NCBI GenBank assembly: GCA_048938105.1
Contig: JBHLMN010000002.1
Span: forward strand, 192,001 to 256,000
DNA length: 64,000 nucleotides
From: Promethearchaeota archaeon
GTDB taxonomy: Archaea > Asgardarchaeota > Heimdallarchaeia > Hodarchaeales > Hodarchaeaceae
Reading direction: 5' to 3'
The notes under the pieces are model-generated. The model was not told the DNA's origin and searched no databases. It saw nothing but the letters and a program-made list of their open reading frames with translations. Below, piece after piece: positions 8,931-12,109 of the stretch. Both the position numbers and the translations under genes were made by a program. Every line of letters begins with the position of its first letter. Position 1 is the stretch's first letter.

Positions 8931-9698
8931 CTATTTAAATTTGGCTTTTCTTTTCTCCAAAAATGCAGAGACTCCTTCTTCCATATCCTCGTGAGAGAAA
9001 CAAAGTGAGAAAATATTTGCTTCCATTTGTATAGCATCAAGTAAAGCCATTTCTGCTCCACGATCGATAGCTTCCTTTGCTTGTGATAAGGCAAAACTTG
9101 GACCGCGAGCTAGTTTTTGAGCTAATTCAGCCACTGTTGAATCTAGGTCTTCTGGGCTAACTACTTTATTTACAAGGCCAATGGCGAAAGCTCTATCAGA
9201 GTCAATGTTGTTTCCAAGGAAAATCATTTCTTTAGCCACGGTCTTACCAACTAATCGAGGAAGGCGTTGTGTTCCACCAGCACCAGGAATAATACCCAAT
9301 TTTATCTCTGGTTGACCAAATAATGCTTTAGATGAAGCAATTCTTAAGTCACATGCCATGGCTAATTCACAACCCCCTCCTAAGCAAAAGCCATTAATGG
9401 CTGCGATCACAGGAATCTCAAGAAGTTCAATATTGTTTAAAGCTCGTTGCAATCTTAATGAAAATGATTTAATTTGAGCAGCTGTTTTTCCTCGAAATTC
9501 ATTTATGTCAGCACCAGCAATAAAAGCTCTTCCTGATCCTTTAAAAACTAGAACTCGAACCTTTTCAGTCTTTACCTTTTCAATAGCTTGATTTATTTCT
9601 TCTATAGTCTCTGTGTTGAGAGCATTAAGGGCTTTCTCTCGAATAAAGGTAACAGTAGCGATTCCTTCAGTCACTTCATAAGTTAGATTTTTATACAT
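8931..9698 (-). CDS. Enoyl-CoA hydratase (crotonase)
   Basis: ALNALN, AFIAGADI, GGGCELAMACD, GQPEIKLGIIPGAGGTQRL. Confidence 0.93.
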   Translation of the reverse strand: MYKNLTYEVTEGIATVTFIREKALNALNTETIEEINQAIEKVKTEKVRVLVFKGSGRAFIAGADINEFRGKTAAQIKSFSLRLQRALNNIELLEIPVIAAINGFCLGGGCELAMACDLRIASSKALFGQPEIKLGIIPGAGGTQRLPRLVGKTVAKEMIFLGNNIDSDRAFAIGLVNKVVSPEDLDSTVAELAQKLARGPSFALSQAKEAIDRGAEMALLDAIQMEANIFSLCFSHEDMEEGVSAFLEKRKAKFK

Positions 9699-9852
9699 GA
9701 TTTTTCCCTATAACTGATTTTGAGTGGTACCAAGCGCTTAAACATAAATGTTCAAATATTTTTGCATAAATAATCAGGATTCAGCAAACATTTAGTTATA
9801 TTCTAATCATTATTAAGAAACTGATAAAATCTACCTAAATTGAGTGGAAAAA

Positions 9853-10412
9853 ATGACTTTATATGAATTCGAAGGAAAACAGCCGAGAATTGCAAGAACT
9901 GCGTTTATTTTTCCATCGGCAGACATTAACTAGATAGTATCTGTTAACTGTAAATTATAGGAAAAGTAACTATAGGGGAAAATTGTTTCATTGGCCCCAA
10001 CGCTGTTCTACGCGGAGATTGGGGATACATTGAAATTGGAAACGGTTCCAATATACAGGATACCTGTGTTATTCACTCAATCCCAGACGAAGGGACTATT
10101 TTAGGTGAAGACTGTCATATTGGGCACGGTGCTGTTGTTCATCAAGCGGAATTAGGAAAACATGTATTAGTAGGTAAAAATGCTGTAATAATGAACCGAG
10201 CGAAGATTGGAGACGATTGTATAATCGGTAGCGGTTGTGTTGTCCCCCAAAACAAAATAGTTGAAGCTAATAGTCTTGTACTTGGTGTTCCAGGCAAAGT
10301 TATAGGAAAAGTTTCAGAAAATCAGAAGAATTATAGCTTAAACGCAACTAAACTTTATCAAACGTTACCTAAACGCTATCACGCAAGCTTAAAGCTCCTT
10401 AAAAATCATTGA
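9853..10412 (+). CDS. Gamma-carbonic anhydrase/PaaY/CaiE-family hexapeptide protein, 176 aa after joining exon 1 (9853-9924) and exon 2 (9954-10412)
   Basis: Exon 1 MTLYEFEGKQPRIARTAFIFPSAD plus exon 2 IIGKVTIGENCFIGPNAVLRGDWGYIEIGNGSNIQDTCVIH...IGHGAVVH. The three metal-ligand His residues are intact. The ORF track only caught 10191-10412. Confidence 0.88.
9925..9953 (+). other. Putative 29-nt archaeal BHB-type intron in an mRNA
   Basis: Central 4-bp helix GCAG(9919-22)/CUGU(9948-51), 3-nt bulges ACA(9923-25) and AAA(9952-54), a 9-bp intron stem and a long exon-exon stem. Cutting after bulge nucleotide 2 on both strands restores the frame. Confidence 0.78.
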
Positions 10413-10648: not shown

Positions 10649-12109
10649 TTGATAAGAATGATCACAAAAACGAAGATAGTTTGCACAATTGGCCCAGCAT
10701 CAGAGAAACCAGATGTTTTTAAGAAATTATTTGAAGCAGGAATGGACGTTTGTCGTCTTAATTTCAGTCATGGGTCTTATTCAGATCATCGAGCTCGTTT
10801 TGAACTTATTAAAGATATTAGTGACGATCTTGCGGTTTTAGTTGATTTGTGTGGACCAAAAATTCGAACTGGAGAAGTGAAAGAAGGAACTGTAATTAAA
10901 ACAGGACAAGAATTCAAGATTTCTGCAGACATCAATGTAGAAGGCAATTCAAAGATCTGTACAACTAATTATCCACCTCTTATAGAGGATGCACAGGTAG
11001 GACATCATCTGGCGATCGATGATGGGTTACTACTACTGAAAGTTACAAAAAAGACAAAAACTGAGCTAGTTTGCACAGTATTGAACGGTGGCCCTTTGAA
11101 ATCGAGAAAGGGAATTAATGCTCCAGATGTACCATTATCATTGTATTTCCCTCTAGAAAAGGACTTGCAAGATATCCGTTATGTTATACGAAAATTAGAT
11201 GTTGATTTCTTCGCAGCATCTTTTGTACGAAGAAAAGAAGACATTCTGAAAATAAGAGAAATATTAGATGAGGTACATTCCCCTATCGGTATTATTAGTA
11301 AAATTGAGCATCGTGATGCAATAGACAATTTTGATGAAATACTTGAAGTATCAGATGGAATTATGGTGGCTAGAGGGGATTTAGGGATAGAGATTCCTAC
11401 AGAACAGGTGCCTATTGTACAAAAGGATCTGATTTCTAAATGTAATCGCATTGGTAAGCCCGTTATTGTAGCCACTCAGATGTTAGAATCAATGATTAAC
11501 AATCCACGTCCAACACGAGCTGAAGCATCAGATGTAAGTAATGCAATTTTAGATGGCGCTGACGCGGTCATGTTATCTGGAGAAACTGCTGTAGGGAAAT
11601 TTCCAGTTGAAGCAGTTCAATATATGGAGCGAATAGCTAAAGCTGCAGAAGATCATGGATTTAGCCGTCCAATTGGTTATGGTATCAAACAGCCCTCTAT
11701 AACCGAAGTATTTGGACGGGGAGTCTATATAATAAGTAAGGAAGACCATTTGAATATCAAAGCTATTCTTACAAATACAAGAAGAGGTTCAACAGCAAGA
11801 CTTGTAGCAAAATATAGGCCAAAAACTCCTATCATAGCAGGCACTCCCTATCCATCAACCAAGCGTCAATTAAATCTTGTTTGGGGAGTATATCCAATAC
11901 AAGTTGAAGTAACGAATTCATCGAATAAACTAAAATACTTATTAGCCAAAGAAGCGCACGAGAGAGGCATCTTGAACCCTGAAGATCAGGTACTTATCAT
12001 TGGTGGCAGTCTCTTAGGTTTTCCAGCAGCAACAAACCTAATTCAAACGATGAAAGTGGACGATATTCTCCTTTTCGGACAACAACTCAGACAACCATTG
12101 ATGGGATAA
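10649..12109 (+). CDS. pyk: Pyruvate kinase
   Basis: TKIVCTIGPAS, RLNFSHG, GPKIRTG, MVARGDLG, ATQMLESM, PTRAEASDV, MLSGETA. Confidence 0.97.
   Translation: MIRMITKTKIVCTIGPASEKPDVFKKLFEAGMDVCRLNFSHGSYSDHRARFELIKDISDDLAVLVDLCGPKIRTGEVKEGTVIKTGQEFKISADINVEGNSKICTTNYPPLIEDAQVGHHLAIDDGLLLLKVTKKTKTELVCTVLNGGPLKSRKGINAPDVPLSLYFPLEKDLQDIRYVIRKLDVDFFAASFVRRKEDILKIREILDEVHSPIGIISKIEHRDAIDNFDEILEVSDGIMVARGDLGIEIPTEQVPIVQKDLISKCNRIGKPVIVATQMLESMINNPRPTRAEASDVSNAILDGADAVMLSGETAVGKFPVEAVQYMERIAKAAEDHGFSRPIGYGIKQPSITEVFGRGVYIISKEDHLNIKAILTNTRRGSTARLVAKYRPKTPIIAGTPYPSTKRQLNLVWGVYPIQVEVTNSSNKLKYLLAKEAHERGILNPEDQVLIIGGSLLGFPAATNLIQTMKVDDILLFGQQLRQPLMG

Follow-up and report, generated by a model that had tools for sequence, protein, structure and literature searches.

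Here we describe a protein-coding gene of the gamma-carbonic anhydrase (gamma-CA) family, found in the 64,000-nucleotide window analyzed (G000:C6:192001-256000, where G000 is the genome under study), that is interrupted by 29 nucleotides at positions 9925-9953. We conclude, with a probability of about 0.85, that this insert is a spliced archaeal bulge-helix-bulge (BHB) intron, of the tRNA type, lying inside the coding sequence. An initial annotation, made from the DNA alone, had proposed that the message is spliced by the tRNA machinery, and this proposal now has comparative support from a homologous intron in a sister species, the corresponding junctions in uninterrupted orthologues, purifying selection on the interrupted genes, and the EndA and RtcB genes of the host. 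From these comparisons we infer that cleavage and ligation take place in vivo.

The G000 assembly is a metagenome-assembled draft of 5.85 Mb (35% GC, 65 contigs, with estimates of 99% completeness and 7% contamination). It belongs to a genus of Hodarchaeales-type Heimdallarchaeia, and these relatives bear out the earlier suggestion that the host was probably an Asgard archaeon. All 21 genomes that represent species of this genus were searched for intron-bearing alleles of the gamma-CA-family gene, with JGI metagenome contigs as an extra sample. The sister species that carries the homologous intron, G007, is represented by a separately deposited record (CP070665.1, 'Heimdallarchaeota bin76'). 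Hodarchaeales are the archaeal lineage usually placed nearest to eukaryotes. Coordinates without a contig label refer to the window, in which the predicted features are as follows.

9842-9852, + strand: upstream element GAGTGGAAAAA, a possible ribosome-binding region just 5′ of the ATG; nearly unchanged in G000, G007, G003 and G011
9853-9924, + strand: exon 1, with the ATG at 9853; 24 codons, MTLYEFEGKQPRIARTAFIFPSAD
9905-9918, + strand: outer exon-exon helix (h), 5′ strand; the minimum free energy (MFE) structure from RNAfold has an unbroken run of 10 pairs here (9905-14 with 9960-69)
9919-9922, + strand: central 4-bp helix, exon strand GCAG; pairs with CUGU at 9948-51 (one G-U pair); identical in G007
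9923-9925, + strand: 5′ bulge ACA; predicted cut at 9924/9925, which gives the in-frame junction of the orthologues
9925-9953, + strand: predicted 29-nt BHB intron; length 3n+2, with an in-frame TAG at 9931-9933
9926-9947, + strand: intron hairpin (h′), UUAAC-U-AGAU-agu-AUCU-GUUAA, in the RNAfold MFE structure; UUAAC/GUUAA helix identical in G007
9948-9951, + strand: central helix, intron strand CUGU; identical in G007
9952-9954, + strand: 3′ bulge AAA; predicted cut at 9953/9954; AUA in G007, where this rule also keeps the frame
9954-10412, + strand: exon 2, 152 codons plus the stop at 10410-10412; hexapeptide-repeat/gamma-CA body
9955-9969, + strand: outer exon-exon helix (h), 3′ strand

The interrupted gene and its predicted BHB junctions

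Exon 1 aligns with the N-termini of 14 uninterrupted orthologues, and the frame that opens at 9954 begins IIGKVTIGENCFIGPNAVLRGD. Exon 2 matches the NCBIfam models for PaaY, CaiE and gamma-CA from model position 23-25 on, that is, without exactly the part that is encoded by exon 1, and a gene caller predicts only a 73-aa remnant at the locus. One could propose that the two exons encode separate polypeptides, or that exon 2 is read from a non-canonical start, with the insert serving as an intergenic spacer, and a TAA does lie directly 5′ of exon 2. However, the first ATG, GTG or TTG of the exon 2 frame comes only at codon 80 in G000 and codon 62 in G007, the 29-mer holds no ribosome-binding motif, and the other 14 orthologues are all single uninterrupted genes. 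Taken with the start of exon 2 at family-model position 23-25, these findings make such an arrangement highly improbable.

The initial annotation had proposed that the junctions fold into a BHB motif, and the central helix, bulges and stems were confirmed base by base; its coordinates for the exons and insert and its statements on the TAG, the frameshift and the pairings were all correct when rechecked. In G000, both bulges are 3 nt long and each lies 3′ of the central helix on its strand, h′ consists of 5 bp, a 1-nt bulge and 4 bp, and the MFE structure includes the outer stem as well as the intron hairpin. By the criteria of the structural scan described below, BHB-like geometry occurs at ~1e-4 of the (position, length) combinations in the genome, and at this locus it coincides exactly with the limits of the insert, which the intron-less orthologues define independently.

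Orthologous junctions and a sister-species intron

The uninterrupted gene is present in 14 other orthologues from the genus and in 8 metagenome contigs, where it reads ...P[ST]A[DETIV]/[IV][IC]G... (the slash marks the intron site). If the G000 transcript is cut after the second base of each bulge (AC^A and AA^A), GAC is joined to ATT and the protein reads ...PSAD/IIGK..., matching the 14 uninterrupted orthologues. One intron-less allele, L004, has exactly GCAGAC/ATTATAGGA, which is the DNA junction predicted by the cut rule. The spliced G000 mRNA is predicted to read CCATCGGCAGAC/ATTATAGGAAAA, and the predicted junction peptide is TAFIFPSADIIGK.

At this site G007 carries 41 inserted nucleotides, whose ends (...GCAG ACA UUAAC ... 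GUUAAC UGU AU/A) are as in G000, and when the cut rule is applied the reading frame is restored, as ...SAD/IIGE.... The 12 extra nucleotides of this intron, at L105:1466-1489, form a near-perfect tandem repeat (CGATAATATCA and CGATAGTATCA) that lengthens the hairpin, a duplication that exemplifies how BHB introns change length. The earlier claim that the AC^A/AA^A rule restores A-D-I-I-G is therefore supported by the orthologues, by the L004 junction and by the G007 intron. The comparison of orthologues that had been recommended thus reveals a homologous intron with the same BHB core in G007 and its absence from 14 others (2 of the 16 genus orthologues examined carry it); no other intron-bearing allele was found in the 21 genus genomes and the JGI metagenome contigs.

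It is also conceivable that ribosomes skip the insert by translational bypassing, taking off at ATT 9925-27 and landing at ATT 9954-56, which would yield the same protein without RNA splicing. Ribosome hopping is known from phage T4 gene 60. The G000 insert has an ATTA repeat on either side, the hairpin begins at the take-off codon and the TAG follows two codons later, all of which would suit such a mechanism. In G007, however, landing at the corresponding codon would cost the protein one residue of the conserved x-[IV]-[IC]-G turn, whereas the BHB rule is exact in both species. Moreover, the GH38 intron described below has no matching take-off and landing codons, yet shows the same BHB geometry in six species, and the machinery for BHB splicing is encoded in G000. 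To our knowledge, ribosome hopping is extremely rare, and we know of no instance in archaea. We consider bypassing very unlikely.

Several observations do count against splicing of a BHB intron at this site. The pairs of h that adjoin the bulges had been described as weak, and they are (a G-U pair, a C/U mismatch, U-A, A-U and one bulged A, followed by the 10 bp); in G007 this part of h is weaker still, with the first two positions unpaired. When the G000 fold is constrained to the BHB, its energy is -14.1 kcal/mol, 0.7 above the MFE of -14.8 kcal/mol, because ACA can pair with UGU instead. The 10-bp exon-exon complementarity is already present in intron-less orthologues (7-10 of the 10 pairs). 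No compensatory double change is found in the helices, although only two intron-bearing species could be compared. Finally, G000 and G007 group with the intron-less G003 in a clade that is supported, but the branching order among the three is not; for the history of the intron, either one gain or one gain and one loss must be assumed.

Given the 7-10 pairs in intron-less orthologues, the outer exon-exon helix was rejected as a sign of selection. The pairing is instead a by-product of the conserved coding sequence, and it more likely explains why the site can host an intron. The G007 motif appears to be a relaxed HBh′-like form, and motifs of this kind are substrates of (alpha-beta)2 EndA with an L1 loop (PMC5829648). 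In the MFE fold of G007 (-19.9 kcal/mol, z = -3.4), the 5′ bulge, central helix and intron helix are all formed, and none of 200 shuffled sequences folded as well.

Selection on the interrupted genes

Between the interrupted genes of G000 and G007, synonymous divergence (dS) is 0.556 and nonsynonymous divergence (dN) is 0.044, giving a dN/dS of 0.079, and neutrality is rejected (Fisher p ~3e-20). Neutral evolution of the exons, which the initial annotation had said would, together with a mobile-element match of the 29-mer, speak against splicing, is thus not seen. Exon 1 differs by 5 synonymous and 2 conservative changes, the upstream element and start codon are retained, and neither gene contains a further lesion. 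The insert has 3 changes in 29 aligned bases, compared with a synonymous p-distance of 0.39 (binomial p = 6e-4), and no base of the central helix, the 5′ bulge or the first intron helix has changed. Judged by these substitutions, the interrupted genes are under strong purifying selection. A gene this constrained must make protein, and therefore the 29 bases must be removed or skipped.

Could the gene nonetheless have been killed by a small palindromic insertion that nothing removes? The insert does bring a stop codon and a frameshift, it forms an imperfect palindrome (ACA-TTAAC...GTTAAC-TGT), and the 73-aa remnant is all that a gene caller sees. However, the insert is older than the split between G000 and G007, and the two genes have since then reached a dS of 0.56 at a dN/dS of 0.08 without acquiring another lesion. 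The upstream element persists, as do exon 1 and its start codon, the insert itself is conserved, and G000 has no close paralogue that could take over (the next match has E = 8e-7). That the locus is a pseudogene is consequently quite unlikely.

Authenticity and family of the interrupted gene

Confirmation that the insert is genuine, which had been called for, comes from Logan contig SRR30758825_12067, which was assembled independently from run SRR30758825 and contains the identical insert. In G000, the gene is flanked by a divergent enoyl-CoA hydratase gene (8931-9698, - strand) and by a pyruvate kinase gene (10649-12109, + strand), and the Logan contig carries both neighbors likewise. A metagenome-assembled draft in 65 contigs with 7% estimated contamination might be expected to contain assembly or sequencing errors, but the same insert in a separately built contig and a homologous insert in the separately deposited record of another species (CP070665) argue against an artefact. 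The insert might also be the end of a mobile element, such as an insertion sequence (IS) or miniature inverted-repeat transposable element (MITE), a source that the initial annotation had itself raised. However, no second copy of the 29-mer or of its 22-nt core was detected in the 5.85-Mb genome at ≤4 mismatches, and the insert has no match in Rfam, which rules out a repeat or MITE origin. Either an artefact or a mobile-element end is hardly credible as the source of the insert.

The assignment of the gene to the gamma-CA/PaaY family also held up. The exon 2 protein matches Pfam Hexapep at 9.9e-20, and an orthologue matches PDB entries 8gpm, 8gpp and 1v3w over its full length at ~1e-39, with the conserved vH and HIGHGAI.H segments aligned. 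The best NCBIfam scores, for PaaY, CaiE and Gram-positive gamma-CA, are 171, 159 and 133 bits, compared with curated cut-offs of 320, 305 and 250; no one of these three specific equivalogs is reached, and PaaY, the best NCBIfam match, is below its cut-off. By these matches, the gene is a member of the gamma-CA/PaaY/CaiE family, whose fold is a left-handed beta-helix.

Splicing machinery and proposed mechanism

Profile searches of G000 identified an EndA domain (PF01974) at C38:59769-60023 (92 bits) in an alpha-like, 188-aa protein of the catalytic type, and a second EndA-fold protein, beta-like and 218 aa long, with its PF01974 match at C38:26778-27038 (62 bits). RtcB (PF01139) is encoded at C6:308699-309976 (540 bits). 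Asgard EndA has been reported to be an (alpha-beta)2 enzyme with a broad-specificity L1 loop, and the presence of one alpha-like and one beta-like gene fits this description (PMC5829648). At C38:22018-22119 (- strand; L023), within a few kb of the gene for the beta-like EndA, a short sequence with an internal TAA gives a third tRNA-intron-endonuclease domain match (28 bits); this may be a gene fragment or a further interrupted gene.

The tRNA genes of G000 are themselves heavily interrupted. ARAGORN detects only 20 of them, 14 with an intron, mostly of 19-35 nt, and multiple or non-canonical introns presumably conceal most of the tRNA genes. This pattern fits the heavy interruption reported for Asgard tRNA genes (PMC11291895; bioRxiv 10.64898/2026.10.13.758758).

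We envision that in the pre-mRNA the exon sequence GCAG pairs with the intron sequence CUGU to form the 4-bp central helix, with a 3-nt bulge 3′ of this helix on each strand and with the intron hairpin and exon-exon helix flanking the motif. A heteromeric (alpha-beta) EndA would cut after the second base of each bulge, at 9924/9925 and 9953/9954, and RtcB would join the exons and probably circularize the 29-mer. The product would be an mRNA for a 176-aa protein reading ...FPSAD-IIGKV....

A second intron in a GH38 gene and a genome-wide scan

The gamma-CA-family case is not a one-off in this lineage, as a second BHB intron, of 31 nt, interrupts a GH38 alpha-mannosidase gene (G000:C35:96129-96159; L188:1470-1500). 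Its central helix pairs UGGG with CCCA, and each bulge reads ACA; standard cuts would restore ...PHTHWD/REWYLPF..., with the nucleotide junction ...CACTGGGAC/AGGGAGTGG.... A 31-nt insert at the same site is present in 6 of 11 species (G000, G003, G011, G012, G014 and G020) and absent from G009, G017, G001, G010 and G006, and in all the intron-bearing genes the frame remains open over 923-962 codons. When the six introns are compared, every cell of the central helix pairs (100%), three one-sided substitutions (C to U, A to G) being accommodated as G-U pairs, and overall pairing is 85% of cells, compared with 37-55% when the partners are slid. The six sequences contain no double compensatory change.

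The initial annotation had also suggested that more such introns are hidden across the genome. This holds only in part: one further case, that of GH38, has good support, two other candidates do not, and no excess over decoys was found. We scanned the genome for structures with a 4-bp central helix, 3-nt bulges, an intron helix of at least 4 bp, at least 3 of 4 outer pairs and lengths of 14-150, which gave 154,088 matches. The filters then applied asked whether an open reading frame (ORF) was restored, whether there was coding potential, whether a separate start codon was lacking, whether the bulges read ANA and whether paralogues supported the joined sequence. In this genome-wide search for BHB motifs that restore an ORF, the true cut rule performed no better than frame-shifting decoy rules in every version of the filters. 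The filters also discarded the genuine GH38 case, and the scan is uninformative beyond showing that such introns are few: mRNA BHB introns in G000 are too few to exceed a noise floor of ~80-1000.

Two further candidates were set aside. The first is a 46-nt BHB-like stretch on the - strand of C35 (~100312-100357; L204), between a frame of 1309 codons and one of 95 codons (as ORFs, 1303 aa and 101 aa). In relatives, the piece downstream of this stretch is the C-terminus of a contiguous ~450-aa protein, and the sequence upstream of that piece (...FGKLLFQRRPLA) is unrelated to the upstream ORF of G000. Fusion of the two frames is thus unsupported, and from this comparison the region looks like a gene fragment beside another gene, with no intron. 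The second is an insert of ~29 nt in a PMDh copy at C46:55653-56024 (- strand; L186). This copy duplicates, in inverted and truncated form, the gene for the AcnX/phosphomevalonate-dehydratase large subunit, of which the intact version lies at C46:50911-52077; it covers residues 1-112 of ~393 at 77% identity and, being truncated, cannot be judged as a functional spliced gene.

Discussion

In the literature searched, splicing of archaeal coding sequences by the tRNA machinery has been documented for one gene family, cbf5 in Crenarchaeota, and reviews to 2025 cite only cbf5. The pre-mRNA for this pseudouridine synthase contains a BHB intron (Watanabe, 2002; Yoshinari, 2006; Yokobori, 2009, PMC2738675). 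The two cases share a short intron within the coding sequence, BHB junctions, a host with heteromeric (alpha-beta) EndA, and patchy gain and loss among relatives. They differ in that cbf5 is an RNA-modification enzyme of Thermoproteota, whereas the gene described here encodes a metabolic enzyme of the gamma-CA family in Asgard archaea of the Hodarchaeales; in that splicing is deduced here from comparison and not from reverse transcription PCR or cleavage assays; and in that at least one more gene, GH38, has a BHB intron in the same genus. Published work on Asgard introns concerns tRNA genes, and no report of a BHB intron within an Asgard coding sequence was found in the literature searched, which largely excludes subscription journals. 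The mechanism is thus a known one, as in the cbf5 pre-mRNA intron (PMC2738675), and it is the occurrence in an Asgard coding sequence that is new in the searched literature.

Other RNAs offer partial parallels. A BHB element has been reported in the 5′ untranslated region of a Haloferax volcanii mRNA (Schwarz, 2020, PMC7714728), and this element resembles ours in that EndA acts on mRNA. The non-canonical tRNA introns of Asgard archaea and Thermoproteales (Valentin-Alvarado, 2024, PMC11291895; bioRxiv 10.64898/2026.10.13.758758) have the same motif, fall in the same size class of ~20-35 nt, occur in hosts with heavily interrupted tRNA genes, and are presumed to be handled by the same enzymes. 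No sequence similarity was found between the 29-nt intron and any other locus in G000.

In eukaryotes, HAC1/XBP1 mRNA undergoes unconventional cytoplasmic splicing, in which Ire1 cuts and, in metazoa, RtcB ligates. As in our proposal, a short, frame-changing mRNA intron is removed without the spliceosome: a protein endonuclease cuts, and a tRNA ligase then joins the ends. Unlike our case, HAC1/XBP1 splicing uses another endonuclease and paired stem-loops that are not BHB motifs, and it serves as a regulated stress switch; we see no sign of regulation here. Our finding says nothing direct about the origin of spliceosomal introns, and such a link, or a regulatory role, would be speculation.

We consider it somewhat more likely than not that splicing of protein-coding messages by EndA and RtcB is a standing part of gene expression in Hodarchaeales, with BHB mini-introns of 29-41 nt being gained, long kept and lost in ordinary enzyme genes. 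If so, annotation pipelines would systematically miscall such genes as broken. Should RNA data confirm splicing, gene callers would be mislabeling these loci as pseudogenes or fragments, thereby biasing metabolic reconstructions of Asgard archaea, and the gain and loss of introns among close species would offer a tractable system for studying how protein-spliced introns originate. Such data would also mean that splicing of mRNA by EndA and RtcB, far from being a crenarchaeal oddity, extends to the archaea most closely related to eukaryotes.
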